Assembly (NCBI GenBank): GCA_902624455.1
Contig: CACNXQ010000003.1
Span: forward strand, 39,029-103,028
Direction: 5' to 3'
From: an uncultured Pelagibacteraceae bacterium
GTDB lineage: Bacteria > Pseudomonadota > Alphaproteobacteria > Pelagibacterales > AG-422-B15
DNA: 64,000 bases
The notes under the pieces are model-generated. The model saw nothing but the letters and a program-made list of their open reading frames with translations, was not told where the DNA came from and did no database searches. Positions 3,723 to 21,281 of the stretch are shown here, piece after piece. The position numbers were made by a program, and so were the translations under genes. The number at the start of each line of letters is the position of its first letter. Within the stretch, counting starts at the first letter, position 1.

Positions 3723-3916
3723 TGTGGAAATTGTTTACCACGGTACCTCAAAATATTCTATGAGCTTGTAAAAGTTTTAAGTTCGGAAATAACTGAGATT
3801 AACCAACAAAAATTGAGGTCAGATGCGACAATTTAAACCCTTATGAGAGCTCTTAATTGCTTCATTATTACGAGAAATAATTGTATTTTGAGCACAGATA
3901 CTAACAGATTACATAA

Positions 3917-4516
3917 ATGTACACACCTATCAACCAATACATCGAAAGATTAGAAAATATTTCTTTTGATGTAACTGAACTTAACGAAGCGGTTAGCCGT
4001 CTAACTGAAATTAGACCATTTGAAGACGTAAGTCACAAGCCGGGTATGCTTAAATCAAACGCTATTTGTCTTAATTATGATGAAAAAGAACTTGATGAAT
4101 GGTTTGGAGGAAACGTAAGAGGTAAGTATTGGACTAAACCAGACTCCTCTTTTGAAGAAATGGAGAGAGAACCTTACATCGATGAAAGTCGATATACACT
4201 TTTTAACCCAAAATTAAACAACACATACTTTAAATATGTGTATGAAAAACTTAATGAATATTTTGATATCGGTAGATGCAGAGTTATCAAAATGCCACCA
4301 AGAACTACACTTAGCTGGCATCGTGATCCTGAGCGACGATTACACATAGCAATCAAAACAAATTTTGGCGCTAGAATGTTTATAGAACACACTGGTTATC
4401 ATATTCCTGCGGATGGAAATATCTACTTAACTGATAACACTAAGTATCATACAGCAATCAATGGTGGTGAAGAGGACCGCATTCATCTTGTTGCTACTGT
4501 TCTAAACACTAAATAG
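3917..4516 (+). CDS. Aspartyl/asparaginyl beta-hydroxylase-like (cupin / 2OG-Fe(II) oxygenase fold) protein
   Basis: 199 aa. IKMPPRTTLSWHRDPERRLHIAIKTN...YHTAINGGEEDRIHLV matches the HxD...H / R.HL pattern of the Asp/Asn beta-hydroxylase family. Confidence 0.55.
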   Translation: MYTPINQYIERLENISFDVTELNEAVSRLTEIRPFEDVSHKPGMLKSNAICLNYDEKELDEWFGGNVRGKYWTKPDSSFEEMEREPYIDESRYTLFNPKLNNTYFKYVYEKLNEYFDIGRCRVIKMPPRTTLSWHRDPERRLHIAIKTNFGARMFIEHTGYHIPADGNIYLTDNTKYHTAINGGEEDRIHLVATVLNTK

Positions 4517-4517
4517 T

Positions 4518-5837
4518 TTAACAATCAATCACATTCTGTCTTGCCCAGTCGGCTCTACTGGCATAGTTGGATTTTTGATATTCTGAAATCTCTCTCTTTT
4601 TAAGTTTCTCGTATGAGTTTATAATTTTCTCACCAAAAACTTTTTTTGGCAGCTTTCCATCTGTTAGCAATCGTAAAGAGGACTCAAGACTGTTTGGCAA
4701 TTTTTTAATATCCTCTAAATTTTTACCTTCAGTATACATGTTGACATCAATCCTTTTGCCAGGCCAAATATTTTTTTCCATACCATTAATTCCCATTGCC
4801 GCAAGAGAAGCCTGCAGAAGGTATGGATTTACAGCTCCATCTGCAACTCTAAATTCGAAACGTCCTTTATCAGGTATTCTAATCATGTGAGTTCTATTAT
4901 TACCTGAGTAGGTAATTGCTGTAGGAGAGTAGGTTGATCCTGAGTCAGTCATTCTGGCATTAAGTCTCTCAAAACTATTTACTGTTGGGGTAAGCCATGC
5001 TGAGAATTCATCAACTGACTTCATGATACCACCAATGAAGTTATAACCTTGACGTGAGAGTCCTAACTCATCTTTATGATTTAAAAATATATTTCTCTTC
5101 TTGTTTTTTGTCCAAACAGAGACATGTGCATGGCAGCCATTCCCTGTAAGGTTTTCAAAAGGTTTGGGCATAAATGTTGCTCTCAGACCATGATTTTCTG
5201 CAATGGATTTTACCATGAATTTAAAAAAAACATGCCGATCAGCTGTTGTTAAACAATCTGAATAATCCCAATTCATTTCGAACTGTCCATTTGCATCCTC
5301 ATGGTCACTTTGATAGGGAGCCCATCCGAGATGTATCATTGCTTCACTTATTTCTTTTAAAACATCGTAGCGTCTCATAAGAGCTGATACATCATAACAA
5401 GGTTTAGATGCTGTATCTCTTGAGTCATAGATCTCTTTTCCATCTTCAGTAATAAGAAAGAATTCACACTCAACACCTGTGTACATATAATAACCTGACT
5501 CTTTTAATTTACTGATTTGTTGCTTTAACATGACCCTTGGACATTGATCCATCGGTTTATCGTTAATCACAAGATCAGCTGCAAGCCATCCAACTTCTTG
5601 CTGCCAAGGTAATTGAGTCAAACTGTCTGGGTCAGGCACAGCAAACATATCAGGGGCGTCATAGTCAAGATCGAGATAGGTTGCAAAACCTCCAAAACCT
5701 GCTCCAGTTTTTTGCATTTCAGAAATTGCTCGCGCGGGAACTAATTTAGCTCTTTGAATACCAAATAAATCAACAAAACTGACCAAAAAGTATTTGATCT
5801 TTTTTTGACGTGCAATCTTTGAGAGGTCTTTTTTCAT
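4518..5837 (-). CDS. Glutamine synthetase family protein (GlnA/PuuA/GmaS-like gamma-glutamyl ligase)
   Basis: GS beta-grasp and catalytic segments (KYFLVSFVDLFGIQRAKLVP, GVECEFFL, HEDANGQFE, NGCHAHVS, NRTHMIRIP). I moved the start to the internal ATG at 5837 (MKKDLSKIARQKKIKYFLV); the 31 upstream codons of the track ORF look like hydrophobic read-through. Confidence 0.85.
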   Translation of the reverse strand: MKKDLSKIARQKKIKYFLVSFVDLFGIQRAKLVPARAISEMQKTGAGFGGFATYLDLDYDAPDMFAVPDPDSLTQLPWQQEVGWLAADLVINDKPMDQCPRVMLKQQISKLKESGYYMYTGVECEFFLITEDGKEIYDSRDTASKPCYDVSALMRRYDVLKEISEAMIHLGWAPYQSDHEDANGQFEMNWDYSDCLTTADRHVFFKFMVKSIAENHGLRATFMPKPFENLTGNGCHAHVSVWTKNKKRNIFLNHKDELGLSRQGYNFIGGIMKSVDEFSAWLTPTVNSFERLNARMTDSGSTYSPTAITYSGNNRTHMIRIPDKGRFEFRVADGAVNPYLLQASLAAMGINGMEKNIWPGKRIDVNMYTEGKNLEDIKKLPNSLESSLRLLTDGKLPKKVFGEKIINSYEKLKKREISEYQKSNYASRADWARQNVIDC

Positions 5838-5921
5838 ATAAATAATTATCAGAATTAAATATTGAATCAGACTCAAACTCAATAGTTTTGCAAAAAACCC
5901 ATTTTGGGTACATAATAAGTT

Positions 5922-6986
5922 ATGGATCAAGGGCTTTTAAAGACTAGAAATGTCTTCATCGATAAAATTTTAGAATTAGAGGACAGTTCAATTGCAATTT
6001 TGCTGTTAATACATTTTTCAAGACACCAAAATTTATTTCTACACAACCAAAAAGACTGGGAAGACAGTCCAACCGATTGGTTGACTGAAGATAAAAGAAT
6101 TCAAGATGAAATTATTGGCATACTCTCATTTGTGATTCTTTACTCTCTTACAAATGCTCATACAGATAATACAATATTTCCTGAGTCAAGAGATTTGATA
6201 GCTAGCATGGGATTAGAAGATTTTCTAAATCAAAAAGAATATTTTTCATCTTTTGATAGTTTTATAGGAAAAAAAATTTCTATAAAGTCCATCTCAGATT
6301 TTTTTAGCATACCAAAAGAAAATACTAGAAGGTATATGAAGCTTATTCTTGAAGCAGGCTTTATTAGTAAGGATAAAAAATATGGATATATGTTAAACAT
6401 TGAAGCCTATAAACAATATATATTCACGGACTCTTTGAATAATATCTGCAAATCACTAATGAGGACATTAGCCGATTTTATATCTAATATCGAAGATGAA
6501 TATCAAGTTGAGTTCAATATAAAACCACTCAAGAATTTTAATTTAAAAAAAGCAAATTTAAAAACATGGTGCCGTGTAAGATTACATTTATACCATTTCT
6601 GGGTTAGAGTTCTAACTCTCGAAGGCAATGATAAAAATTTGAGTCCTAATGATCGGGCGGTTTTATCAGCATCTGTATATTTTAAAAATAGACAAGGGAT
6701 ATTACAATTTAAAAATATTACTGAACTATATGAAAATAACTATTTGCTGCCCACTAATATTTCATCAATTTCAGAGGCTGCTCAAATGCCAAGAGAAACA
6801 GTTAGAAGATCAGTGATGAAACTTATTAAATTAGAACATCTTGAAAAAAAAGGGCGCGATATTTATCGATATAATTATCCAAAAAAAGATGGAGAAATAG
6901 ATAACTTTCTTAAAGTAAAGCAAATATCAGTAAGAGATATGATGAATTTTTATTTTAATATTTATAACGATCTATCAAAAATTTAA
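5922..6986 (+). CDS. Putative transcriptional regulator with two winged-helix HTH-like segments
   Basis: 354 aa. Two HTH-like stretches: ISDFFSIPKENTRRYMKLILEAGFISKDKKYGY and ISEAAQMPRETVRRSVMKLIKLEHLEKKGRDIY. 3' end overlaps the convergent OMF gene by 4 nt. Confidence 0.45.
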   Translation: MDQGLLKTRNVFIDKILELEDSSIAILLLIHFSRHQNLFLHNQKDWEDSPTDWLTEDKRIQDEIIGILSFVILYSLTNAHTDNTIFPESRDLIASMGLEDFLNQKEYFSSFDSFIGKKISIKSISDFFSIPKENTRRYMKLILEAGFISKDKKYGYMLNIEAYKQYIFTDSLNNICKSLMRTLADFISNIEDEYQVEFNIKPLKNFNLKKANLKTWCRVRLHLYHFWVRVLTLEGNDKNLSPNDRAVLSASVYFKNRQGILQFKNITELYENNYLLPTNISSISEAAQMPRETVRRSVMKLIKLEHLEKKGRDIYRYNYPKKDGEIDNFLKVKQISVRDMMNFYFNIYNDLSKI

Positions 6987-9808
6987 ATTGAGCACATCAT
7001 AATGACTTCTTCATTACAGATTAACTCAGCCTCAACAATTGAGGTATTATCGGAGCTCAATTGAGTATCTAATGACTCAAGCATAGACACGGCGTCATTT
7101 TTTGGAACTGGACCAACAATCACTGAGTAATCGTTCTTAGCGATTTGGTCTACGTTAATGTCATATTTAAGAAATCTGCTATCAAAACCCATGACGTCAT
7201 ATAAATAATTCATAAAACTGAAGGCAGAGTTACCTCTCTTATAGGAGCCAATTTTTATATAAACATGTTCGGCATCAGTGTTTTCAATTAGTTGTCCAGT
7301 ATTCGTTTTTGATTCACTTGCCTGTGCCGAATAGCTACTTGAGATTGAAACATCATTAGGATCGATAATCTCATTTAAATCTTCAATAGCATTATTAGCT
7401 TCTAATAATAATTCCTCTTCTTTTTTAGAGGCAATCATTTGATCTAATTCATTTTTTGCATCATGTGCCTCAGCAACAATCTTTTCTAGTTCCTTCTTTG
7501 CTTCATTTGCCTCGGCAACAAATTTACTTACTTCAACATTATCAGATGGCAATTTTTCTGGAAGAATATTTATTAATTCTTCATTTGTTACAGAGTTAGA
7601 TACTACTTCCTCTTCTATGCTGCTCACAACAGATTGTTCAACGACTTCTTCTTCAACTAATTCATTTGTGATTTCAGTTTCAGCATTATTATTAACAATG
7701 TCTGAACTATTTAAAATATTCTCAGCCTCATTCATTGTTTGTTCAACTGAGTCAAGTAAGTTGCTTAAAAGATCAGTTGAATTGATGGCAATATCACTTG
7801 TTAGTGGGGCTTGGCTTGATGGCGCTTCAGAAGTTTCTACAAGTTCTTGTGACTCGTTATTGCCATCTTCAATGACTGCAACTTCCTCCTCAGTTATATT
7901 AAATTCTTCTTCAATGGTTTCATCTATATTTTGGGCTTGTTGGTATAATTCAATAAGCTCTCTTCTTGCTTTCTCACTCTCATCTGCAAGAAATTTTTCT
8001 TCATCAACAAAATTGAGAGTAAAATCATCATTGGTAGAAACGAGGGCATTAGATACAGAAATATTTAGTTTAATACCAGTTACATCTTCAGGAGGATTAC
8101 CTACAATAGATAAATCTGATGTTAGGAATGCTAACCATCTTGGAAGTTCTGTTCCATCTTGTTGAGTAACTTCATATCTTAATTTGCCTGGGCCAGTGAT
8201 ATTAAACGTTTCTTCAGAAATTTTGAATTTATTACTAGTTTGTTGAGTATTGATAGGATCACTAATGATAAGCAGTTTTGGATCTTGTTGATCTAATGGC
8301 AAGTTCACAACAGCTTGATAGTTTTCTCCCCATTCCATCAAACTCATTTCAATATTTTTGCTCAGATCATCCACTGACAAGTTTTCATGATCTGGTGGAA
8401 GAATATCTTTACCTACAGATGCATATATTTGACCAATACTATGCTGCATGTCAGAGAAGGCCAGGTCACGTCTTAGCTCGGCGACTAACAAACTTGCTTC
8501 TTCCCTTATGACTTCTAATTCACCAAATCTTGAGACTTTTTGGGCATTTTGAACCTGTTTACTAATTCTCTGTGCTACATCGAGATATCTTTGGGCAGTA
8601 TCATATTCTTCTATTGCAAGATCATAATTCATATTGGAGAGATGAACTTGTGATAACACTGTCATAGCTATTGCAAGATGTCTCTCGGCAATCAACTCTT
8701 TACTAGCTTTTGAGGATTTAGATACAGCACCGATAGAAAAGATATCAAAAAGATTGCCACCTATTGATGCTCCATATTCTGTGGTATCTTGATTTAATAG
8801 TAAATGGTTATCGCTGTAACCATAAGTTGCATTAAACTTGATTCCTGGAATTAAACCAATAATTGCAGCTCTTGCATCCTTGCTTGTAATCCTCTTTTGG
8901 TACCTACTTTCCATTAATTCTGGTCTCGAAACTAGAGCAATGTTTTCCATAGACTCAATATCCATATCAATATTAGTCAGATAGCTATTTTGATCTGATA
9001 AAGTGAATTTTTGATTTGGCAATAATCCCATAAGCGTAGCTAGTTCATTCTTAGAATTGATTAGTGCTCTTTGCTGAGTTTGAAGCGTTCTTTGAACATC
9101 CAATAATTCTTTTTGATATAACAGGGAGTCCATTGGAGATGATAAAAGAAGTTCTTCAATATACTGAGAGTCGGCCAGAGCTGCATCAACTCTTTCAAGG
9201 AGTGGATTCAATTTATTTAGTAAATTTTCTGAAGCCTTGGCTTTCCAATAAGATCGAATAATATCACGGGTTATGTTTTGTATAGCCTTACGTTCCAACT
9301 CTTTTGCAATGAGAAATCGGTCTGCTTGTTGGCCAGCTCGGATGTAGGATAATCCGAAATCTAGAGCATTCCACGTAAATTCAATATTTCTAGTTTCCAA
9401 TCTTTTATCACGAGAAATTGTATAAGACTCGGTTCCATCAAGTCGTTCAGCATCACCCATATCGTTTTCAACACTCAAACTAGTAGAAGGTTGTAGCTCA
9501 GTAAATTCAGAGTAACCTGCATTTAATGCAATATCAGGCAACATATCAAACCGCTGAAGTTCGTTTTGACGTTGCGCCAAAGCTGACTCCATAACGCTGA
9601 TACGAAGGTCACGATTGTTTTTTATTGCGATAGCAATTGCAGTGTGTAAATTGATATTTTTTAGAGACTCGTTTACACTTAATGCTTCACGATCTGCCGC
9701 AATTGACGAATTGATTTCATCTACATCAAGCACGACTGGCGTTCTTGTACAACCCAACAAAATTAAAAATAGACAAAGAGAGAATATCTTTGTTACTTTA
9801 TCTAACAT
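6983..9808 (-). CDS. TolC-family outer-membrane factor lipoprotein with long C-terminal extension (cadherin-like module, acidic coiled-coil, SPOR-like domain)
   Basis: 941 aa. Lipobox LFLILLGC near the N-terminus. First ~480 aa have the two-repeat OEP/TolC heptad pattern (AIAIAIKNNRDLR..., ALVSRPELMESRYQ...). Then ELPRWLAFLTSDLSIVGNPPEDVTG, an E/D-rich low-complexity and coiled-coil stretch, and a terminal YIKIGSYKRGNSAFSFMNYL...YSVIVGPVPKNDAVSMLESL (SPOR-like). Confidence 0.8.
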   Translation of the reverse strand: MLDKVTKIFSLCLFLILLGCTRTPVVLDVDEINSSIAADREALSVNESLKNINLHTAIAIAIKNNRDLRISVMESALAQRQNELQRFDMLPDIALNAGYSEFTELQPSTSLSVENDMGDAERLDGTESYTISRDKRLETRNIEFTWNALDFGLSYIRAGQQADRFLIAKELERKAIQNITRDIIRSYWKAKASENLLNKLNPLLERVDAALADSQYIEELLLSSPMDSLLYQKELLDVQRTLQTQQRALINSKNELATLMGLLPNQKFTLSDQNSYLTNIDMDIESMENIALVSRPELMESRYQKRITSKDARAAIIGLIPGIKFNATYGYSDNHLLLNQDTTEYGASIGGNLFDIFSIGAVSKSSKASKELIAERHLAIAMTVLSQVHLSNMNYDLAIEEYDTAQRYLDVAQRISKQVQNAQKVSRFGELEVIREEASLLVAELRRDLAFSDMQHSIGQIYASVGKDILPPDHENLSVDDLSKNIEMSLMEWGENYQAVVNLPLDQQDPKLLIISDPINTQQTSNKFKISEETFNITGPGKLRYEVTQQDGTELPRWLAFLTSDLSIVGNPPEDVTGIKLNISVSNALVSTNDDFTLNFVDEEKFLADESEKARRELIELYQQAQNIDETIEEEFNITEEEVAVIEDGNNESQELVETSEAPSSQAPLTSDIAINSTDLLSNLLDSVEQTMNEAENILNSSDIVNNNAETEITNELVEEEVVEQSVVSSIEEEVVSNSVTNEELINILPEKLPSDNVEVSKFVAEANEAKKELEKIVAEAHDAKNELDQMIASKKEEELLLEANNAIEDLNEIIDPNDVSISSSYSAQASESKTNTGQLIENTDAEHVYIKIGSYKRGNSAFSFMNYLYDVMGFDSRFLKYDINVDQIAKNDYSVIVGPVPKNDAVSMLESLDTQLSSDNTSIVEAELICNEEVIMMCSI

Positions 9809-9993
9809 CTATAAGTCTTTTCAATTATTCACTTTTTTCGTTATTGTAATAGTACTAGTAAAATAAAAAACACATATAAAATATCCCCAAAATGGGTCAT
9901 TTTTGTGAATCTAAGTACACCTTAGAAAGTTTGTAGGATATAACTAAATCCATAAATATCAATGAATTAGGTATAGATTCTAATTAAATATAA

Positions 9994-12900
9994 ATGAGTA
10001 AAAAACTGATCCAAGCATTAGAACCACGAGTTATGCTCGATGGTGCCGCTGTAGCCACGGCATTGGATACAATCGATGAGCTCACTCAATCCAACAAAAT
10101 CGATGAGGGATCAGAAAATAAGAGTACTAAATTTAAAGCAGCTAGCGATACCAAACTTCCATTTGTGAATGGAATTGATGCAAGTCAAAATGCGAAGTCA
10201 CGACAAATTATTTTCATCGATAGTGCCGTTGAAGATATCGATACTCTTATAAACAGTTTTGATGCTCATGCAGAAGTTCATGTCATCCAAAGTGATCAAG
10301 ATGGATTTGTTGAAATTCAAAAAATTCTTTCAGATGAAACAAATGTAGATGCATTGCATATCATCGGTCACGGTAGTGTTGGACAAATCGCATTTGGAAC
10401 AGCTGTTTTAAATAGTGATACGTTAGATGCTTACGAAGATACACTCAAAACCATTGGTTTAAGTTTAAGCGAACAAGGGGACATTTTATTTTATGGTTGT
10501 AATGTTGCTGCCGATCAAAATGGTGAAATCTTAATTAATCAAATTGCGGATATTACGCAAGCAGATATTGCAGCATCAGATGATGTCACAGGTAAAGGTG
10601 GCGACTGGGATCTTGAAAAGCATACAGGTATTATTGAGGCCAATAATATTGATGTTGTAAATTATGAACACTCACTTGCAAATGGAGTAGCTTCAACTGA
10701 TTCATCAGTGGTTGAAATTCACGGTGCTACAAACTATGAGGCACGTTGGACTGACCCCACTAACCGTGACGGACAAATGGATCCAAGCTCCGATCGATTT
10801 ATTATTTCTCAAGAGAGAGCTGATGTAACAGGTGGAGCAGGGACTTTAAGTTTTGACGTTTCTGGTGCGAAAAGTTCGCATACACCAAGTACGAGTGAAC
10901 CAGTTCACGTGTATTTACTTTTCTCAAACGATAATACCGATAGCAACTCTCGTCGATCTGGCTCAAGAACAGGTGTCGTGACTTTTGAAAACGATATTTT
11001 GGGTGTCTTCACTAGCCCCTATAAAACCATTGCAATGACTGGGATTTCAAAACCAAACGCTTCATATCCAACGGCAACTTCGGATAAGATTGGAATGAGG
11101 GATTTAGAATATAAAAACGATAATGCTCCAGGACAGCAGGGGAATAAAGACTGGTTTAGAATTTACAATTCAAACAGGTCGATTGAAATTGGTACAAAAA
11201 ACGGACTTAAAGGTGACTTCATTCGTGTCATTACTAGAGCTCCGACTACAGTTGTGGTTGAAGGTAATAATGATGCGGGTTATATCAATGAAGACTCAGC
11301 ATTAAGTGTCACAAATGGTGCTAGTGCAAATGATAGCACGCCTGATACATCAGGAGAACATACAGGTGATGTATTGCTTAATGATACCGGGGGTAACGGA
11401 TCTGATTTATTTGTGAGTGCAATACAAGGAGGATCCGTTGGATCGCTAGTTGATGGTACGTATGGTCAACTAAGGCTCTTTTCGAATGGTTCATACACTT
11501 ACACGGCTAATAAAGATGCTGCTGACACACTTGATGACGGTGATACAGTAACTGACTCATTTACTTATACTGTTAGTGATGATGCAAATAATACCGATAC
11601 TGCAACCATTACAATTACTGTTAGAGGTATCAATGATCCGATTACCGCAGTTAATGACACAGATGCAGTATTTGAAGATCAAAGTATCAGCCGAGGGATT
11701 TCAAGTTCTAAGGAGTTAGATCATGACGATACCGATCCGGATGGTAGTGACTCATCTGGTAGTTTTACAATTACTGCAATCAGAACAGGAAGAGAGTCCT
11801 CAAGTAGCGGAAATGTAACTGGAACTGTTAACTCAGCTCTAAATGGTACTTATGGTGTTCTAACCGTAGGTTCAAACGGATCTTATTCTTATGCAGCCAA
11901 TAGAAGTGGAGCAGACGCGTTAGAAGCAGGTGCATCAGCTATTGATTACTTTACATATACCGTACAAGATCACAGCGGGGGTGACACGGATACAGCTGAG
12001 CTTGCAATTACTGTTACAGGTGTTGGACCAGGCGCTGTGAATGATACTGATACTGTTGCTGAAAATGGTTCCCTCAATCGTAATGCAGCCGCTGGAGTAT
12101 TGGACAATGATGATGATAGTGCTTCATTTGACCAAGAAAATTTAATTGTCACCAACATCACTTCAGATAGCACTGGTAATAGTGGGAATGCTACACAAGG
12201 TGTACTCGGAACCTACGGAACCTTAACAGTTGCAGAGGATGGTAGTTATACATATGTAGCAAATACTGCTGCTGCAGAAGCTTTAGCCGCTGGTGATAAC
12301 AGTCAAACCGATGTATTCACCTATACAGTAAAAGATGATAATGGCGTTAACGCAGATACTGCAACTCTAACCATTACGATACAAGGTCAAGACGATGATC
12401 CTGTCGCATCAGCAGACACAGGAACAGCTACTGAGGATGGTCCACAAGTTTCAGTGAGTGCTGCTAGCGGTGTTTTAGCCAATGATACTGATGTGGATGC
12501 TGGAGAAACGTTAGAGGTTTCAGCTGTTGGGGGTAATGGATCAGCCGTTGGCCAAAATGTTACAGGGTCTCTAGGAACTTTAAATTTAGATGCAGATGGA
12601 TCTTACACATATATTGCTGATCAAGCTGGTGCCGATGCAATTACCGCAGGACAAACTGCGACAGATACATTTAGTTACACCTTAACTGACGGTGAAGGGG
12701 AAACAAGCACGGTAAACCTAGTCATTACGGTTACAGGTAAAGGGCCAGAGGGTGTTGCGGACACAGCAACGGTAAATGAAAACTCAACAGTAGAGAAAAA
12801 CAACGCGGCTACTAATGGTGTATTAGCAAATGATGACGATAACGCATCATTTGATCAAGAAAGCCTTGCAGTAACTGCTATCACGGGAGCATCAGCCGGA

Positions 12901-15900
12901 ACAGTTGGTGGAACAACAGCTGGTACTCATGGTACTCTCACGATGAACCAAGATGGTACTTATTCTTATGCAGCAACTAACGATGCACTTGATGATGGAG
13001 AAACTGTTAATGATGTATTCACGTATACGGTTAAAGACGACGATGATAAAAACTCAAGCACCGCAACATTAACCATTGCAGTAACTGGAGTAAATGACCC
13101 AATTACCGCAGCTGACGATACAGATGGTGTTACGGCTGGGTCAACCATAACAAGAGATGAGGCATCAACCTTTGAGTTAGACCATGACGATACTGACCCT
13201 GATGGTGATGATGTGTCAGGTAACTTTACTATTACTGCTGTAACTCACGCTTCAGGAGATCTTACAGTTGGTCAACAATATACAACATCTAAAGGTAGAA
13301 TTACGATCAATTCAAACGGTTCATATACATATATAGCTGATCAAAGCGGTTCAACAGGCTTATCAAACGGTGCTCAAACAAATGACGTCTTTACATATAC
13401 AGTGAGAGATCACAGTGGAGGTGATACAGACACTGCAACACTTACAATTACAATTACAGGTTCAACTAATAATGCCCCTGTTGCTGATGACCCGGAAGTA
13501 GATGGCAATGCTGGAACGGGATACATCTTAGAAGATCAAACATTGACAGTTACGAATGGTTCTACTGGTGTAACTGGATCTGACAGCAATAATAATAACG
13601 AAACTGGAGACAATACAGGAGACGTTTTAAATAATGATACCGATGCAGATGGTGATCCACTTACTGTTTCTGCAATATCAGGTGGTTCTGTTGGTGCTGG
13701 AGGTGCCACAGGAACATATGGAACATTAACCATTCAAAGTGATGGTAGTTATACCTACAATGCAAATAATGCAAACTCGATAGCAAAAGATACTGAAGCA
13801 ACTGACGTTTTCACTTACACAGTCAGCGATGGCAATGGTGGTACAGATACTGCTACCATAACTATTACTATTTTAGGAGTAAATGATGCTCCAAGTGCAA
13901 GCAATGATACGAATGCTGTTGATGAAGATGCTACAGCATCCAAAAATGCCGGAGCGGGAGTACTGTCCAACGATAGTGATGCTGATACGGGTTCAAGTAT
14001 GACGGTGACTGCAATTACTGGAGTATCAGCGGGTTCGGTTAATGGAACAACAGATGGAACTTATGGTACTCTGACTCTTAATGATGACGGCAGTTATTCT
14101 TATACCGCCAATAAAGCTGCTGCAGACCAATTGGCACACAACGCTACGGCAAATGATGTCTTCACTTATACGGTCAAAGATAACGAGAACGCTACTGCTA
14201 CTGCAACTTTGACTATTGTGGTTACCGGTAAGGGACCTGTTGGTTCAGCTGACACTGCTTCAGTGAATGAAAATGTTTTACTTGAAAAGAATGAAGCAAG
14301 TGGTGTGCTAGCAAATGATAACGGTGGAGATACTGAGAATTTAATTGTTACTAACATTGAATCGAATGATACCAGTAATACCGGCACTGCAGGTCAAGGT
14401 GTTTTAGGAACCTATGGTACTCTCAATATTGCCTCTAATGGAAGCTATACGTATACACCAAATACGGCTGCTGCAGAAGCACTGGATCAAGGTGATGTCG
14501 TTTCAGAAGCCTTTACCTATACCGTAAAAGATGACAATGGTGTCAACTCAAGTACTGCTACCCTTACTATTACGGTAACCGGTGTGAACGATCCGATTGT
14601 AGCAGTTGACGATACCGACAGTGTTGATGAAGGTCAGAGAATAACAAGATTAATCAGTGATGATCAGGAACTTGATCACGATGACACGGATGTAGATACC
14701 GATGATGTGAGTGGAAGTCTTACGATTACAGATATCAGAACAGGTCCTAAGGATGGGACTGGCACCGATGGTTCTGTTAATGTGGCATTACAAGGTGAAT
14801 ATGGAACACTTACTGTACGCCCTAATGGGGGTTATACATACATTGCTGATCAAACAAAATCAGATGACTTGGTTACAGGTCAAACAGGAACAGATATATT
14901 CACTTACACAGTAAGTGACGGCACTGAAACATCGACAGCTCAACTTACTTTCACAGTAACTGGCGTCAACGATAATGACCCTGTTGCAGTGGATGATACA
15001 GATACGGTTAAACGTGATGCTTCAATAACTCGTGCTTCTGGATCTGCATTTGATATAGACTCAGATGATACAGATGCTGATGGAGAAACCCTAACCATCT
15101 CTGCAGTACGAACAGGTCAAGATGAAGGTGGAGGTAAAGGGGGCCCTGCTAGAGTTGGTAAAACACTTGTAGGCACATACGGTACTCTAACCTTGAATTC
15201 TGATGGTAGCTATACTTACGCAGCTGATCAGGATGCAGCGGATAGTCTGAAAAGGGGCGATAGTGCTATTGATTATTTCAACTATACAGTGACCGATGGA
15301 GAAAGAACAGACACAGGAGTAATTGCATTTACAGTTGAAGGTATCAGTGATCCACCTGAACCAGAAGATGATACCCTAGAGGTTGATGCAGGCGCAACGG
15401 CTACAAAGGATGCAACACAAGGCGTATTAAACAATGATAGTGACCCGGATGGAGATACCCTAATTGTTGATAGCATTAGAACGGGTCGAGAAAATAAAAC
15501 AGGTACATCTGGAACAGTTGGCACACCAGGAACAGATGGTACGCCTCTTACTGGCAGATATGGTGACTTAATAATGTATTCTGATGGTAGTTACGAATAC
15601 TCAGCAAATAATGCAAAATCATTAAATCCTGGTGAAACAGCAACAGAATATTTCACTTATACAGCATTTGACACTGATACTTCAGTTCCTGCCGAAATTG
15701 CAATTACGGTTACTGGTCAAAATGATCCACCTGAAGTCGTATTTCCTGTAAATGACCCGATAGTAGTAACAGGACAACAAATCAACATAAGACACAAACA
15801 AATTTTTGACGATCCTGACAGAGGCGCATTTGACATTACTGAATATAAAATTATCGATCCAGAAACAGAAGCAGAAACCAGTCTTCCAGAAGGACTTAGA

Positions 15901-17109
15901 TTAAAGCAAAATAAGTTACATGGAAGTATATCTACTCCTGGTATATATACGATTACTATAAGAGCAATTGATGGAGCTGGTTTATATGCTGATCATACCT
16001 TTACAATTACGGTTCGACCTGCGCCAGGTTTTTTCGCTGAAAATGAACCTATTTTTGAAGAATCATCAGTCAATATTGAACCATTGGTCATAAAGCCTAA
16101 GAAAGATTTCCTAGCAGCAGTCAAAGAGGCATTTAATGAAGGAACATCTAATATCTCTGATGATGGATTTAACTTGGATACCATTTCAATTGCTGACACT
16201 GCATCTCTATCTAAACCATTAAAATTTAATGGTGGCTTGAGATTGATGGACGCAGTCGCTAGTGATGTATCTGATATTGAAGGGGCAGACTTAAAAGTCG
16301 GTGTTAAATTAAATGATGACAACCAAAAAAATGTAGAGTCTTATTCAGGACAACTTTCTGATGGAAAAGCATTACCTGAGTGGATAAGTATCAATCCTGA
16401 AACAGGAGAGACAACTGCAGATATGCCAGATGGTGTTGACCAGGTAGAGGTTCAACTTGTCGCTCTAGATAAAGATGGAAATACAAGAGATATTAATATT
16501 GTTTTAGACAAAGCGAAAATTAAAAATGACCAAGACTTTACTCGAGGTACCGTTGGTCAAACACGAGTTGTTGTTGATAATGACTCTAATGTAAATCTTA
16601 TTCGAGAAAATAATGGTAACGTGAATAACACTGCTTCAAATAATTTGAATGCCGATGCAGACTTTGTTGGCAATATGAAATTAAGCTCACTTCAAATGGA
16701 CTCAGGTAAATTTACAATAGATATTATTGATGATAATCAGTCCAATGTGAAAGCTTATAAAGCTCAACTCAAAGATGGTAGCGCCTTACCTGATTGGGTT
16801 ACGATTGATCCTGAAACAGGAGCTATTTCTGCTGATCCATCTCTAAGTAAAACTGATGTTTCAGTACCTTCATTCATTGCAGATACTCCTACTATTCTAG
16901 AATTAAAGATAATAGCAGAAGATGAGGATGGAAATGAGAGAACAATTGAAGTTGAAATAAACCTTGATGAATTACCAGTTTCAGAAGATGATAGTGCTGA
17001 AAGCCCTGAAAATAATGAACTTTCTTTTATTCCATTAAACGAGCAATTGAAGAACCAAGCTCAACAATCAGATAGCTATGGCGAAAAAATTATGAGTCTT
17101 GTAAGCTAG
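9994..17109 (+). CDS. Giant repetitive surface/secreted adhesin-like protein (N-terminal DUF4347, 12 VCBS-type repeats, cadherin-like C-terminal modules)
   Basis: 2371 aa. N-terminus [14 protein letters not shown] followed by DUF4347-like [14 protein letters not shown]...[16 protein letters not shown]...[10 protein letters not shown]...GGDWDLE. 12 repeats of GTYGTLT..DGSYTY.AN..AADAL..G....DVFTYTV.D..G..[16 protein letters not shown]. C-terminal LPEG/LPEW/LPDW modules. Confidence 0.9.
11260..15735 (+). repeat. In-frame array of 12 diverged ~95-110-aa VCBS-type repeats inside the adhesin gene, with a higher-order pattern of alternating linker types
   Basis: I counted 12 FTYTV/FSYTL/FNYTV/FTYTA cores. 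Linker types recur: ELDHDDTD(P/V)D...FTIT (repeats 2, 6, 10), ANDDDxASFDQE(N/S)L.VT.IT (3, 5) and a related [17 protein letters not shown] linker (9). DNA copies are clearly diverged by eye, not recent duplicates. Confidence 0.85.
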
Positions 17110-17121
17110 TCTCATAAGGTC

Positions 17122-17844
17122 ATGAAAAAATTATATATTTTTTTGACAACGGTTTGTTGTTTTTTACTCATTTTTAAAAGTACTTTTGCCAATGAGTCCT
17201 CAACTCGTATTTTAGTTACGTCAACTGAAGAAGCAACTCTATCCAGCGAAATTGCAGCAAAAGTATTATCCATTCCGGTAAAGACGGGAAATTTATTCAA
17301 AGAGTCAGATCCACTGATTAAATTTGATTGTTCTTTTTTTGAAGCTCAAAAGGATGTGGTCGAGTCAGAATTAGAGAGTGCCAGGGTAACTCTTAAAAGC
17401 AATCAAGATCTTGTCTTGATGAGAGCAATTGGTGATTATGAAGTACAATTATCACAAATTGCAGTAGAGCAAGCTGAAGCTGAGTTAAAGATAGCTCAAC
17501 TTAATACAGATCGATGTATTATTCGAGCACCTTATGATGGTCGTATGTCTGATATCTTTGTGAATGAGTTTGAAAGCATTGAAAGACAACAGCCTCTCTT
17601 GAAAATCATTGGATCGGGTTCGCTAGAGGCTAAGTTAATGGTCTCGAGTAAATGGTTGTCATGGATAACCGTTGGGTATCCTATGCAAATTGTAATTGAT
17701 GAAAATGGTTTAATGTATCAAGCCAAAGTAAGTTCAATTGGTGCAAATATAGATCCAGTAAGCCAGACAATAGATATTACTGCAAAATTTGACGAAAATT
17801 ATGATACATTACTATCTGGAATGAGTGGGACGGCAACATTTTGA
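17122..17844 (+). CDS. Periplasmic adaptor (membrane fusion protein, HlyD/RND-adaptor-like), short form with signal peptide
   Basis: 240 aa. Signal-like MKKLYIFLTTVCCFLLIFKSTFA; lipoyl-like SSEIAAKVLSIPVKTGNLFKESDPLIKFD; coiled-coil; IIRAPYDGRMSDIFV hairpin-return motif. Starts 12 nt after the adhesin stop. Confidence 0.7.
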   Translation: MKKLYIFLTTVCCFLLIFKSTFANESSTRILVTSTEEATLSSEIAAKVLSIPVKTGNLFKESDPLIKFDCSFFEAQKDVVESELESARVTLKSNQDLVLMRAIGDYEVQLSQIAVEQAEAELKIAQLNTDRCIIRAPYDGRMSDIFVNEFESIERQQPLLKIIGSGSLEAKLMVSSKWLSWITVGYPMQIVIDENGLMYQAKVSSIGANIDPVSQTIDITAKFDENYDTLLSGMSGTATF

Positions 17845-19175
17845 GTGAAAACTCTTCTATAAAAATAGCAAGACTAATCACCCTTGAAAAAAAGTTCCGT
17901 ATGTCAGAGACTGAAACGGAGCTTGAATTTACATGTGTTAATGAATTACGAAGTATAATCGATTATAATTTTTTATTTCTTTTAACTAAATCAAATCTTA
18001 ACAAGTTAAAGGTCAAAGCTATCTCAGATATTTCTGTAGTAGATAGAACCGCTCCAGCAGTCACTTTTATCGAAACTCTAATAAAAAAAGACCTTATTCA
18101 AAGTGATGAAATATCAGAATTAAGTCTGAAAGATTTAGAGAATGAAACTGATATTGTATTACCAGAAAATTTTCCAAATGAATTTATCACCGTACCCCTG
18201 ACATCACCTACGAGGGGTAACATAGGTTATTGGGTTATGGTTCGATCTGAGCGTGCAACCAATACTGAACAAGAATTATTGTTACACATTTCAGAAACAT
18301 TTAGCCATGCACTAGGTTCGTTTACTTCAAAAAATTCAATAATGTCTTTCTTTCAAAAAGTATTTACTGGTTGGGTCAAATGGTTATTAATTACCGCTAT
18401 TGCTGCTGCAATGTTTATACCAATAAATATGTCTGCCTTAGCCCCTGTTGAAGTAATTGCAAAAGATCCATCGATCATTACATCCCCTGTTAACGGTGTT
18501 ATTGAAAAAGTATTAGTTAATACTAACGATCCAGTAAGTGTAGGAGATGATTTAGTTAAACTTGATGACTTAAATTTTAAAAACAATTATGAAATTTCTC
18601 TTCAAGAGCTTGAAGTCGCAGAAGCTGAATTGTTAAGAGTTAAGCAATCTTCTTTTACTAATCCTGACGATAAAGCTAAACTTGTGGAACTGTCAACTGA
18701 AGTAGGTTTGAAAAAGAAAGAAGCTGCGTATGCCAAAGAACAGTTAAATTATTCAGTCATTAGTGCTGAAACTAGAGGTGTTGCAGTAGTAGAAGACTCT
18801 ATCGATTGGCAGGGAAGGCCAGTCAGAATTGGTGAAAAGATTTTAACCATTGCTGATCCAACTCAAGTCGAGTTTCTGATTTTCTTACCGACTAAAGATT
18901 CTTTGTTAATTCAAGAGTCTGCAGAAGTTAAAGTATTCTTAGACAGTGATCCTCTTAATTCTTTAGATGCAGAAGTTATTAGAACTTCATACAAACCAGA
19001 ATTAACACCTGAAAATATTCTTGCTTACAGAATATATGCAAGTATTGAGGATGTGGCTCAAAATCCAAGAATAGGATTGAGAGGTACAGCCAAAATTTAT
19101 GGCGAAAAGACCAGTCTATTTTATTATCTTTTCAGGGTTCCTATCAATCTTACCCGACAATTTGTAGGTTTTTAA
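17841..19175 (+). CDS. HlyD-family membrane fusion protein with N-terminal cytoplasmic GAF-like domain
   Basis: 444 aa. TTG start overlaps the upstream stop (TTGA); alternative ATG at 17901. GAF-like ending ITVPLTSPTRGNIGYWVMVRSERATNTEQELLLHISETFSHAL; one TM (WVKWLLITAIAAAMFIPINM); then IITSPVNGVIEKVLVNTNDPVSVGDDLVKLDD plus a coiled-coil and beta-barrel region. Confidence 0.7.
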   Translation: MSENSSIKIARLITLEKKFRMSETETELEFTCVNELRSIIDYNFLFLLTKSNLNKLKVKAISDISVVDRTAPAVTFIETLIKKDLIQSDEISELSLKDLENETDIVLPENFPNEFITVPLTSPTRGNIGYWVMVRSERATNTEQELLLHISETFSHALGSFTSKNSIMSFFQKVFTGWVKWLLITAIAAAMFIPINMSALAPVEVIAKDPSIITSPVNGVIEKVLVNTNDPVSVGDDLVKLDDLNFKNNYEISLQELEVAEAELLRVKQSSFTNPDDKAKLVELSTEVGLKKKEAAYAKEQLNYSVISAETRGVAVVEDSIDWQGRPVRIGEKILTIADPTQVEFLIFLPTKDSLLIQESAEVKVFLDSDPLNSLDAEVIRTSYKPELTPENILAYRIYASIEDVAQNPRIGLRGTAKIYGEKTSLFYYLFRVPINLTRQFVGF

Positions 19176-21281
19176 ATGTTAACACCATTTATCAGACAAG
19201 ATCTTAAACTAAGCAAAGGACCAAAAAAAGAAGATGGTTCTTCAACATGGCTCCTCTACGATGCATTAAGAAACAAATATTTCTCCATCAATAAAAAGGC
19301 TTTTGATTTATTAAGCAACTGGACTGGTGGACAAAAGATGGATGAGTTTATTGTGAAGATGCAATCAATTAATGCATCAATACGTGACGATGAAATAAAA
19401 GACTTTGCTAACTTCTTAAATATTAATAATTTGACTACCAAGAAAACTCAAGACGAAGTCAAATCTCTAGTAGTACAAAAAAATAAATTAAATAAGCATT
19501 GGCTACTTAAACTTGTGCATAATTATCTTTTCTTCAAAATCCCTTTTTTTAGACCAGGCAGTTGGCTAGAAACAACCTTGCCGTATGTATCTGTATTAGG
19601 ATCCAGACTGGTTAGAAACATTATTTACATCTTAGGACTGATTGGTATTTATTTAACAATCTCAAATTATGAAACATTTTTAAATACGTTTTCATATTTC
19701 TTTAATTTAAATGGTTTAATATTTTATATTCTCACCATTATTGTGATTAAAGCATTGCATGAATTAGGGCATGCTTACGTAGCTACATACTATAAATGTA
19801 ACGTATCCTCCATCGGTCTTGCAATGCTGGTATTCTTTCCATTTTTATACACAGATACATCTGATGCTTGGAAACTAACAGATCACCGAAAACGATTACT
19901 GATTAATTTTGCAGGCATGCTGACAGAATTACACATCGCACTGATTGCAACGTTTGCTTGGGCCATCATACCAGAAGGTATTTTAAAAAGCGCAGCTTTC
20001 TTTATAGCAACTTCAAGTTGGATATCCTCTCTCCTTATAAACATAAGTCCGTTCATGAGATTTGATGGCTACTATGTATTATCTGATTATTTAAAAGCCG
20101 ATAACTTACAACCAAGATCCTTTGAATTAGGGCGATGGCAGTTAAGAGAATGGATTTTTGGTTTTAAATTTCAACCCCCTGAGCAGCTGATGAGCAATAG
20201 AAGATGGACGTTTATTATTTATGCATGGTCTACGTGGCTCTATCGGTTCTTTATCTTCATTGGTATTGCATTATTGGTCTATTACTTAACATTTAAAGTG
20301 CTAGGGATAATCTTATTCATTATTGAAATTGTTTGGTTCATCCTTCTTCCAATTTACAGGGAAGTGAAGCGGTGGTGGGGATTGCGTAAATCTATGACAG
20401 TCAATAGAACCTCAATGAGGTCTTTAAGTCTATTTTGTATTTTATTAGTGGCTCTCTTTATACCTTGGAGAACTTCTCTTAGTTTACCAGCAGTTATTGA
20501 GAAAGAAGCTGTGATTGATATTTTTCCACCTGAGGACTCGATGATTAAAAACATTTTTATTGATAATAATCAGATCGTAAAGAAAGGAGATTTATTAATT
20601 AGATTTACTAATCCTTACTTAGCAACTCAAGTTGAACAGGCAATTGATCGTGTAAAACTGATACAAAAGAAACTGGATCGAAGAATAGGATCTGAGTTGG
20701 ATATGAGTAATTTAATGGTTCTAGAAAACCAACTAAAAAAAGAACTGGAAGTACTCAATAATTTAAAAGAACAAAGTAAGGAATTAACAATTTATGCTAA
20801 CCAGGACTCAACTGTTGTAGATTTAAAATATCTTGAGAACAATCAATGGGTCAGTCAGAATGATAAGTTGTTCTCACTAATAGAATCTGGAAATTCTCAA
20901 GTTATTGCATATGTCAATGAGACAGACCTAAATAAAATTAAAAGTAAGAGCACAGGGGTCTTTTTTTCAAAAAATAATGAATATTCAAATATTGAAGTTC
21001 AATTAAGAGATCTTAATGAAACATCTACTGAAGAACTGCCTTACTTATCACTCACATCTTCTTATGGCGGTCCTATTGCAACAAGAGAAGTTGAAGGCAA
21101 AAAAACTTCGCAACGCCCTGAAAAAGCACTTTACCAAGTAAATTTTCAAACTCTCTCACAACACAGCGATCTTCAATGGGAAACGCCTGGAGTCGTTAAA
21201 TTAAAAAGTGAGAATTACAATGTATTTCAAAACCTCTTCAATTTAGTAACATCAACCCTAATTCAAGAAAGTGGTTTTTAA
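19176..21281 (+). CDS. Site-2 protease (peptidase M50) / membrane-fusion-protein chimera with PqqD-like N-terminal domain
   Basis: 701 aa. ATG directly abuts the upstream TAA. N-terminus WLLYDALRNKYFSINKKAFDLLSNWTGGQKMDEF (PqqD-like). HELGH at nt 19758-19772 and NISPFMRFDG at nt 20040-20069 lie within multi-TM segments. C-terminal MIKNIFIDNNQIVKKGDLLIRF plus long coiled-coil and TVVDL (HlyD-like). Confidence 0.8.
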   Translation: MLTPFIRQDLKLSKGPKKEDGSSTWLLYDALRNKYFSINKKAFDLLSNWTGGQKMDEFIVKMQSINASIRDDEIKDFANFLNINNLTTKKTQDEVKSLVVQKNKLNKHWLLKLVHNYLFFKIPFFRPGSWLETTLPYVSVLGSRLVRNIIYILGLIGIYLTISNYETFLNTFSYFFNLNGLIFYILTIIVIKALHELGHAYVATYYKCNVSSIGLAMLVFFPFLYTDTSDAWKLTDHRKRLLINFAGMLTELHIALIATFAWAIIPEGILKSAAFFIATSSWISSLLINISPFMRFDGYYVLSDYLKADNLQPRSFELGRWQLREWIFGFKFQPPEQLMSNRRWTFIIYAWSTWLYRFFIFIGIALLVYYLTFKVLGIILFIIEIVWFILLPIYREVKRWWGLRKSMTVNRTSMRSLSLFCILLVALFIPWRTSLSLPAVIEKEAVIDIFPPEDSMIKNIFIDNNQIVKKGDLLIRFTNPYLATQVEQAIDRVKLIQKKLDRRIGSELDMSNLMVLENQLKKELEVLNNLKEQSKELTIYANQDSTVVDLKYLENNQWVSQNDKLFSLIESGNSQVIAYVNETDLNKIKSKSTGVFFSKNNEYSNIEVQLRDLNETSTEELPYLSLTSSYGGPIATREVEGKKTSQRPEKALYQVNFQTLSQHSDLQWETPGVVKLKSENYNVFQNLFNLVTSTLIQESGF

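Follow-up and report, generated by a model that had tools for sequence, protein, structure and literature searches.

The giant-protein locus of a SAR11 genome

A stretch of 64,000 nucleotides from an uncultured Pelagibacteraceae bacterium of the SAR11 group (contig CACNXQ010000003.1, positions 39,029 to 103,028; hereafter the window) was analyzed with respect to a gene cluster that encodes a giant repeat protein and its putative export apparatus. The giant gene is followed by three genes that each contain a membrane-fusion-protein (MFP) module: a small MFP, an MFP with a GAF-like N-terminal domain (GAF-MFP) and an MFP fused to a site-2 protease (S2P) of the M50 family (S2P-MFP). The gene for an outer-membrane factor (OMF) is located upstream on the other strand. 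The features are, in positions of the window:

6983-9808, minus strand: TolC/NodT-family OMF lipoprotein, 941 aa (OEP and He_PIG profile matches, lipobox)
9809-9993, no strand: AT-rich spacer of 185 bp between the divergent OMF and giant-protein genes, with the presumed promoters (sequence reading)
9994-17109, plus strand: giant repeat protein, 2371 aa, the presumed cargo (DUF4347, Cadherin_4, VCBS and LEPR-XLL matches)
10015-10059, plus strand: N-terminal LEPR-XLL (LExR) motif, candidate signal, residues 8-22 of the giant (carried by 32/33 operon-adjoining DUF4347 proteins)
10207-10644, plus strand: DUF4347 domain, residues 72-217 of the giant (Pfam match and alignment)
17023-17106, plus strand: conserved C-terminal element of the giant, residues 2344-2371 (a related element ends many LExR giants)
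17122-17844, plus strand: small periplasmic MFP, 240 aa, with an N-terminal signal peptide or anchor (RND_mfp, HlyD_3)
17841-19175, plus strand: GAF-MFP, 444 aa, with a GAF-like domain, a transmembrane (TM) helix and an MFP domain (HlyD_3, TM helix, AlphaFold2 model, GAF matches of orthologues)
19176-21281, plus strand: S2P-MFP fusion, 701 aa, with a domain like PqqD or a RiPP recognition element (RRE; RiPP, ribosomally synthesized and post-translationally modified peptide), an M50 core and an MFP domain (Peptidase_M50, daptide_HExxH, HlyD_3, Foldseek)

All open reading frame (ORF) coordinates and junctions given in an earlier note on this DNA were exact when verified base by base. The stop codon of the giant gene (TAG, 17107-17109) is separated by a 12-nt gap from the ATG of the small MFP gene at 17122. 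The latter overlaps the GAF-MFP gene by 4 nt (TTGA, 17841-17844), and the GAF-MFP and S2P-MFP genes meet in the sequence TAAATG (19173-19178). The TTG start of the GAF-MFP gene is supported, since the residues preceding the internal ATG are invariant among orthologues.

The giant protein matches DUF4347 (7.8e-48), Cadherin_4 (1.6e-120) and VCBS (2.8e-115) and contains about 12 cadherin-like/VCBS/Big_9 repeats as well as He_PIG domains. The NCBIfam model LEPR-XLL (NF012209) matches residues 6-25 with 17.0 bits (cutoff 17), and the motif is preceded by the short basic stretch MSKKLIQ. The protein has no hydrophobic N-terminus that could serve as a Sec signal. Tandem repeats of the repeats-in-toxin (RTX) type were not found in it; a single isolated GGxGxD is located at residue 466. 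The G+C content of the giant gene (window 10001-16000) is 40-42%, compared with 31-35% in the flanks, which may reflect repeats rich in Gly, Ala, Thr and Asp or a horizontal origin.

Giant proteins of this kind would be expected next to an ATP-binding cassette (ABC) exporter in which the transmembrane domain (TMD) and the nucleotide-binding domain (NBD) are fused. The earlier note had reported that such an exporter is missing from the 64 kb, and the profile searches agreed with it. Four ORFs of the window contain an NBD, namely an ABC-2 type, a LolD/FtsX type, a ZnuC type and a partial N-terminal NBD at the window edge, and no ORF in the window matches an exporter TMD.

The outer-membrane factor and the three adaptors

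The divergently transcribed gene had been described as a TolC-family lipoprotein 185 bp from the adhesin, and this description holds: the protein matches OEP in two stretches (1.6e-32; barrel at about residues 54-470) and He_PIG (9.7e-6) and carries the lipobox LILLGC. Its C-terminal extension of about 470 aa (window 6983-8400) combines a He_PIG Ig-like domain with a strongly acidic stretch of low complexity and a terminal domain of about 80 aa. A SPOR domain, previously proposed for this tail, was not detected with Pfam, even when the sub-domain was searched in isolation. The extension is kept in SAR11-type metagenomic loci, in which the OMFs are 700-980 aa long, and is absent elsewhere (about 510-620 aa). 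By eye, the terminal domain of about 80 aa appears beta-alpha-beta-like. A Ser/Thr-rich ORF of 182 aa lies antisense to the OMF gene (window 7617-8165, plus strand), over the part that encodes the acidic low-complexity stretch, and in all likelihood is spurious.

An MFP module was detected in each of the three genes behind the giant, as the earlier note had read them (RND_mfp 2.5e-29, HlyD_3 1.3e-12 and HlyD_3 2.2e-7, in gene order). The 240-aa protein scores above the cutoff of TIGR01730 RND_mfp (102.3 versus 94.9 bits), matches HlyD_3 (1.2e-15) and has a hydrophobic N-terminus or signal peptide, in line with its assignment as a secreted adaptor.

The 444-aa protein has a GAF-like domain at residues 1-172, crosses the membrane once (175-193) and ends in a periplasmic MFP domain (194-444; HlyD_3). 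The N-terminal domain of the window protein itself gave no Pfam match to GAF, staying below threshold even as an isolated sub-domain. Among 20 orthologous N-terminal domains, seven matched GAF (best 2.2e-5) and six GAF_2, and an orthologue from the sister branch described below passes the GAF cutoff (4.1e-10). A profile of the domain searched against PDB sequences returned GAF domains as top matches, which were marginal (E = 0.05-0.09). The AlphaFold2 model (mean predicted local distance difference test score, pLDDT, 81.5; N-terminal domain about 80-88) shows the N-terminal domain, one TM helix and an MFP hairpin with barrel; the order of helices and strands in the N-terminal domain presumably resembles that of a GAF domain. 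Judged from the orthologues, the GAF label stands at family level, and the layout of GAF-like domain, single TM helix and adaptor holds as the earlier note gave it.

An M50 protease core fused to an adaptor

The 701-aa protein is composed of an N-terminal domain (residues 1-130), an M50 core with about seven TM helices (131-430) and a periplasmic MFP domain (431-701). Peptidase_M50 matches above its cutoff (1.5e-9), and the best characterized match of residues 23-399 is the model of the daptide M50 leader protease (daptide_HExxH, 4.7e-39). The catalytic motifs are HELGH (residues 195-199, nt 19758-19772) and NISPFMRFDG (residues 289-298, nt 20040-20069). HExxH and NxxPxxxxDG were invariant in an alignment of 24 sequences (32-48% identity) and in 82/82 full-length orthologues. 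Since both motifs are always intact, selection appears to act on catalysis and not on a scaffold alone, and the M50 fusion is therefore predicted to be kept catalytically active.

Foldseek placed the C-terminal domain among adaptors (MacA, E = 4.9e-12; top matches MacA, MexA, ZneB and EmrA), consistent with its HlyD_3 match (2.2e-7). The AlphaFold2 model of the fusion (pLDDT 66) was used for counting TM helices and for the MFP fold only, as its N-terminal domain was modeled as helices with low confidence. The helix count gives an N-in/C-out topology, that is, a cytoplasmic N-terminal domain and a periplasmic adaptor domain.

Evidence for the PqqD-like nature of the N-terminal domain comes from relatives. 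The domain of the window protein has no Pfam match to PqqD, also not as an isolated sub-domain, and its profile found no PqqD match among PDB sequences. PqqD was the sole recurrent Pfam family among the orthologues, with weak matches in 2/24 (best 0.005). The N-terminal domain of the sister branch passes the Pfam cutoff for PqqD (24.1 versus 23.4 bits), and hhalign aligned the fusion profile with this domain over 125 columns (95% probability, E = 2.3e-8). The PqqD label thus stands at family level, as far as profile comparison can tell. Of the chimera proposed in the earlier note, the intact M50 core and the C-terminal adaptor with MacA fold were confirmed, whereas the PqqD-like domain is sub-threshold on its own and is linked to the family through the sister branch. 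The assignments of adaptors, protease and OMF survived the hidden Markov model searches that had been proposed as a check, and fold searches as well.

Distribution and conserved gene neighborhood

A cluster search of 1.84 billion representatives (E <= 1e-30) yielded a fusion family of 2,749 clusters at 50% identity, which share the full-length architecture of about 700 aa at 33-43% identity. In a scan of one genome per species, relatives of the fusion were present in at least 596 GTDB species. Among the hosts are Pelagibacterales, Colwellia, Marinomonas, Halomonas, Hyphomicrobium, Rhizobiaceae, Azospirillum, Methylobacterium, Zetaproteobacteria and Desulfobacterota; many relatives are found in Nitrospira, among them Ca. 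N. defluvii. The closest relatives among the matches listed come from single-cell genomes of Pelagibacteraceae.

For the analysis of synteny, the best 80 of the at least 596 relatives were taken with 10 kb on either side (Alpha-, Gamma- and Zetaproteobacteria, Nitrospirota and Desulfobacterota), and the ORFs of these loci were searched with the window proteins. The GAF-MFP gene lies directly upstream of the S2P-MFP gene in 69/69 loci with enough flank. The small MFP was found in 60/65 loci and the OMF in 46/59, with 38 of these OMF genes placed as in an operon. A DUF4347/VCBS protein or an ORF of at least 1200 aa was found in 36/38 fully flanked loci, so that the triad of adaptors and protease goes together with giant proteins, and the independent occurrence that would have spoken against the earlier note was not seen. 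The idea that loci of the Marinomonas and Colwellia type are without OMF and small MFP was rejected; their metagenomic relatives have the order OMF, small MFP, giant, GAF-MFP and S2P-MFP, which places the two genes outside the 10 kb taken on either side.

All-against-all clustering of the flanking ORFs showed three families that recur across taxa: the MFP/S2P proteins, the giants and the OMFs. Four gene orders were observed: OMF, MFP, MFP, S2P-MFP, giant; giant, OMF, MFP, MFP, S2P-MFP; OMF, MFP, giant, MFP, S2P-MFP; and the SAR11 order with the divergent OMF. The same five families thus stay together although their order is reshuffled, a classical signature of functional coupling.

No fused TMD-NBD exporter was detected in the flanks of the 80 genome loci. 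The 21 ABC ATPase ORFs found there are all shorter than 470 aa and have at most one TM helix. When 80 metagenome loci were added, about 160 loci in total contained no linked fused exporter inside the cluster, and an ABC, RND or MFS partner linked to the set was likewise not found in the examined flanks. Two candidates were examined and judged to be unlinked, an ABC-F protein near an LExR gene (locus L106) and a fused exporter located 5 kb upstream of an LExR protein with unrelated genes between (locus L122).

Plasmid-borne versions of the cluster were found as well. Plasmid p2 of Azospirillum argentinense Az39 carries, in RefSeq terms, a DUF4347 protein, an Ig-like protein, TolC, an RND adaptor and two HlyD proteins. 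On the E. coli IncF plasmid pABWA45_1 (NZ_CP022155.1, 117154-139277; L084 1-16070 and L085 21155-26501) a block of five genes lies between IS5 and IS1 and encodes a 4457-aa Ig-like protein, a TolC-family protein, an adaptor, a GAF-MFP-like HlyD protein and an HlyD/S2P fusion. The giant starts with MTTIKNRRLRPRAHRFALESRQLFDGAA, followed by DUF4347. In 24/5,426 complete E. coli genomes the four system genes are found with at least 99% identity, for the most part on plasmids, and they also occur on Citrobacter plasmids; natural carriers include the E. coli strains ABWA45, TOK-001, KL53 and G5. Mobility of the cassette with just these five genes speaks against a need for additional dedicated parts.

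An N-terminal motif marks the giants adjoining the system

Of 33 DUF4347 proteins that adjoin S2P-MFP operons in organisms as distant as SAR11, Nitrospira and E. coli, 32 share an N-terminal motif. After a basic stretch its consensus is A-L-E-[PSQ]-R-[ILM]-[MAV]-[FL]-D-[GA]-A-[AG]-x-A-T, with no variation at L, E, R, D and the first A. The association was also examined in the reverse direction: a metagenome scan with the DUF4347 profile was made, 80 loci were re-annotated, and those with at least 3 kb of informative flank were counted. Where the motif was present, the system was seen in 27 loci and not seen in seven; where it was absent, the system was seen in none and not seen in 12 (Fisher's exact test, p = 1.3e-6). 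Judged from this co-occurrence, the putative export system tracks the N-terminal LExR motif and not DUF4347 itself.

The two groups of giants also differ in their repeats. GGxGxD repeats number about 0 in 60 LExR giants and often 7-22 in DUF4347 giants without the motif. The latter often have C-termini like those of type I secretion system (T1SS) substrates (L131, L135, L142, L147), and in L147 the motif-less giant (497-9418) is directly followed by an exporter with ABC_membrane and ABC_tran domains (9688-11225). Because of this split of motif and system, together with the RTX repeats and the adjacent ABC exporter of the motif-less giants, DUF4347 giants fall into two export classes, of which the LExR class goes with the protease-adaptor system. 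The view that DUF4347/VCBS giants are T1SS cargo therefore applies to the motif-less RTX class, with one adjacent ABC exporter, but not to the LExR class.

At the other end, many LExR giants share a related element, φ-x-[PSG]-L-x-[EQ]-Q-[LVI]-x7-9-YG-x-x-L, which was found in giants of SAR11, Colwellia-type gammaproteobacteria, Methylobacterium and the E. coli plasmid. It could be a second signal or an anchor.

The alignment of the DUF4347 core showed a conserved strand-His-Gly motif (IHIIGHG) and a strand-Cys motif (ILFYGC). This arrangement of His and Cys resembles that of clan-CD (CHAT/caspase-like) peptidases; by analogy, self-processing next to the leader is a possibility. A distant solved relative of DUF4347 is chain G of PDB 9qpe, which we guess to be PA0256, the Hcp-bound Pseudomonas DUF4347 effector (PMC8262886).

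A sister branch contains a SecA-like ATPase

More distant fusions (25-28% identity) form a sister branch on plasmids of Pontibrevibacter, Pseudosulfitobacter, Methylosinus, Ensifer, Pseudohalocynthiibacter and Rhizobium. They adjoin genes for LEPR-XLL giants of 8.8-12.9 thousand residues. The gene order is giant, (DUF3467), GAF-MFP of about 630 aa, PqqD-M50 protein of about 715 aa, (SapC), a SecA-like protein of about 660 aa and small MFP; TolC was seen in one locus, that of Methylosinus. The Pontibrevibacter giant begins ...RLMLDPMEPRVLLSADP and has no DUF4347. Since the motif is present on these giants without DUF4347, xEPRφφφ[DS][GA] is the common denominator of both branches.

The SecA-like ATPase is encoded in 6/6 sister loci. 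The protein of about 660 aa is a SecA paralogue: it matches SecA_DEAD (1e-96 to 1e-103), contains the preprotein cross-linking (PPXD) and P-loop domains according to Pfam and is about 40% identical to E. coli SecA. RefSeq labels these genes 'prepilin peptidase', 'DEAD/DEAH box helicase' or 'hypothetical protein'. Positions of the SecA-like ORFs within the sister loci are:

L166: 11088-13073
L167: 12990-15014
L168: 12117-14033
L169: 12006-13994
L170: 11027-13102

A SecA-like ORF was found neither in the window nor in the flanks of the loci of its branch. The presence of a SecA-like ATPase in an operon of adaptors, protease and OMF marks these systems as protein translocation machines, and such a motor fits a threading from N- to C-terminus that starts at an N-terminal signal.

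Proteins of the SapC family and of DUF3467 were observed sporadically in or beside loci of both branches (L076 12086-12844, L018 6806-7777, L031 5538-5969, L167 12176-12997).

Comparison with known systems

The one-step architecture of OMF and HlyD-family adaptor is that of T1SS (HlyBD-TolC, LapBCE-LapA and the MpIBP system), in which giant, repeat-rich surface cargo of the Ca-binding type without Sec signal and an anchored adaptor with a cytoplasmic N-terminal extension are found as well. In contrast to these, the SAR11 locus contains no ABC exporter and three adaptors instead of one, one of them fused to M50. The candidate signal of its giants is the conserved N-terminal LExR motif, without RTX repeats, whereas the T1SS signal is C-terminal and uncleaved. 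Because the defining ABC exporter was not found in the window or in the clusters of the about 160 loci, the system is not classifiable as T1SS.

The colicin V exporter (CvaAB-TolC type) has, as is proposed for the SAR11 locus, a leader-cleaving protease built into an inner-membrane platform that is coupled to MFP and OMF, and its leaders end in small residues (Gly-Gly there, D-G/A-A here). Its protease, however, is a cytoplasmic C39 cysteine peptidase on the ABC protein and its cargo a peptide, whereas the locus studied here has an intramembrane zinc M50 protease fused to an adaptor and a cargo of thousands of residues. The M50 peptidases of RiPP pathways (B. subtilis YydH, KEGG K16922; daptide MpaP, NF041824) share the HExxH/NxxPxxxxDG core and probably the N-terminal PqqD-like domain, but they have no MFP domain, OMF or adaptor partners and act on peptides. 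In YydH/MpaP-type systems, export is carried out by separate ABC transporters.

The sister branch is similar to the SAR11 locus in its homologous adaptor and protease families, its xEPRφφφ[DS][GA] signal and the lack of an ABC exporter; it differs in its dedicated SecA paralogue and in its larger giants without DUF4347. This branch alone resembles the accessory SecA2 systems of Gram-positive bacteria, in which a SecA paralogue is dedicated to very large repetitive surface proteins. Those systems work with SecY2/Asp proteins and a single membrane, in contrast to the MFPs, M50 protease and OMF of a diderm envelope, and the branch of the window is without a SecA paralogue in the cluster. Tripartite pumps (MacAB-TolC, AcrAB-TolC, EmrAB-TolC) have the same adaptor fold, as seen in the Foldseek matches to MacA, MexA, ZneB and EmrA, and an OMF partner. 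Unlike them, the locus has no ABC, RND or MFS transporter and its substrate is likely a protein. A role in the efflux of small molecules or peptides is unlikely.

Proposed mechanism and alternative explanations

We consider it probable that the locus encodes a dedicated, ABC-independent apparatus that spans the envelope and serves LEPR-XLL giants, with the M50 protease clipping the leader and the giant leaving in one step. The only polytopic inner-membrane protein of the five-family set is the M50-MFP fusion. In the proposed mechanism, the three paralogous adaptors would assemble into a mixed oligomer, a periplasmic tube docked on the OMF trimer. The PqqD/RRE-like and GAF-like cytoplasmic domains of the two membrane-anchored adaptors would capture the leader of the unfolded giant. 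By analogy to C39 peptidases, YydH and MpaP, the M50 site might clip the N-terminal leader during or after engagement; that the cut is made at the motif is pure conjecture. The polypeptide would then leave in a single step through the conduit of adaptors and OMF, and the GAF-like domain may gate export in response to a ligand. Candidate motors for the branch without SecA paralogue are the housekeeping SecA, the proton-motive force and a Ca2+-dependent ratchet by which the cadherin/VCBS repeats would fold outside the cell.

The earlier note had suggested a distinct envelope-spanning machine without ABC component, and comparative evidence from synteny, motif and sister branch supports this suggestion. 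Two additions sharpen it, the N-terminal LEPR-XLL signal and the SecA-bearing sister branch. The wider claim is that both branches represent an unrecognized secretion class of diderm bacteria for LEPR-XLL giants, in which the leader is captured, cut by M50 and followed by ABC-free threading from N- to C-terminus through a conduit of three adaptors and TolC, driven by a dedicated SecA paralogue in one branch. We hold this claim tentatively, at slightly less than an even chance.

Several points weigh against the proposed apparatus. Function is deduced throughout from sequence comparison, and every step is a prediction. The cluster of the SecA-less branch encodes no energy source, and conduction of proteins is not known from M50 proteases. 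The AlphaFold2 model of the fusion is of moderate confidence only, and that of its N-terminal domain is of low confidence. In seven LExR loci the system was not present inside the available flanks. The search for ABC exporters covered 10 kb on either side of the best 80 of at least 596 relatives, which leaves room for an unlinked ABC exporter or SecA paralogue. LExR giants also share the conserved C-terminal element, a possible second signal. In addition, a Vibrio LEPR-XLL giant with C-terminal RTX/serralysin domains exists (PMC10868602), and some LEPR proteins may still use T1SS-like export by the C-terminus.

The last three of these points are also what speaks for a canonical T1SS with an ABC exporter encoded elsewhere, as does the T1SS-like nature of the MFP and OMF components. 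Adaptors and OMF would then serve this distant exporter, and the M50 fusion would be an accessory maturation factor. We regard this as unlikely. T1SS genes for ABC exporter and MFP are normally adjacent, whereas not one linked fused exporter was seen in the about 160 loci; the nearby exporters are those of L122, at a distance of 5 kb with unrelated genes between, and of L147, which belongs to a giant without the motif. RTX repeats and the adjacent ABC exporter go with motif-less giants, and LExR giants are without RTX. As a unit of five genes, the IS-flanked cassette travels between plasmids of E. coli and Citrobacter, and the sister branch carries a SecA-like protein instead of an ABC exporter.

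Another explanation is taken from the LapD/LapG system: the LExR/DUF4347 module would plug the tube, the M50 protease would shed the adhesin upon a signal sensed by GAF, and translocation would take place by another route. An N-terminal module holds LapA-type adhesins back in the OMF until a cut at Ala-Ala sets them free. The invariant D-[GA]-A-A of the motif, the folded DUF4347 domain behind it and the cytoplasmic, sensor-type GAF domain would agree with such a role. LapG is periplasmic, but the active site of an RseP-type S2P is expected in the inner membrane near the cytoplasmic face, and with N-in topology the only cytoplasmic part of the fusion is its N-terminal domain. The six proteins of the locus include neither a LapG-type protease nor LapD, and the flanks contain no further conserved family. 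No other export route is apparent for a giant without Sec signal, and the SecA-like motor of the sister branch argues for translocation. Anchoring with regulated release is thus improbable as the main function.

We assign a very low probability to the explanation that the operon exports or processes a small RiPP-like peptide or another substrate and merely tends to adjoin giant genes. It would account for the RiPP leader peptidases being the closest M50 relatives (daptide MpaP model, 4.7e-39) and for the PqqD/RRE-like N-terminal domain, but neither a precursor peptide nor modification enzymes are recurrent in the flanks. The giants adjoin the operon in 36/38 loci, across phyla and in four gene orders, and this neighborhood is specific to giants with the N-terminal motif (p = 1.3e-6). 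The E. coli cassette, moreover, consists of the giant gene and four system genes only.

Significance for giant surface proteins

A description of the fusion, of the triad or of its link to giants was not found in the searchable full-text literature, a scope that excludes subscription-only titles, and the sister branch, too, is undescribed. A preprint of March 2026 on Chlorochromatium reports exported symbiosis proteins of 36,806 and 20,647 aa with an N-terminal LEPRxLL. It states that these giants lack known transport signals or a known route and places SapC in their flanks. The preprint agrees with the components found here.

LEPR-XLL giants of 2,000 to over 30,000 aa occur in many phyla, and the locus provides a widely conserved candidate machine together with a candidate targeting signal. 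There is a fair chance that it represents a new secretion class among the envelope-spanning systems with OMF and MFP. If so, it would be a secretion route that breaks the rule of 'ABC + MFP + OMF', and site-2 proteases would gain a new role within an export platform. This bears on the largest surface proteins of SAR11, the most abundant marine bacteria, and of nitrifiers such as Nitrospira. The cassette on E. coli IncF plasmids makes the hypothesis directly testable by standard genetics. With respect to annotation, thousands of proteins named 'HlyD family efflux transporter periplasmic adaptor subunit' could receive a specific context, and SecA paralogues now labeled 'prepilin peptidase' or 'DEAD/DEAH box helicase' could gain one likewise.

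Neighboring genes

Two further genes of the window were inspected:

5922-6986, plus strand: 354-aa protein with weak winged-helix-like matches, probably outside the system (sub-threshold helix-turn-helix matches)
35611-37548, minus strand: 645-aa DUF3604 protein

The first had been taken for a protein with two winged helix-turn-helix domains, but the corresponding matches stayed below threshold (E = 0.005 to 1e-4). It was rejected as a member of the system, with a homologue only in the nearest metagenomic relative (L086) plus one weak match. The DUF3604 protein (Pfam, 1.4e-189) is unrelated to the system.

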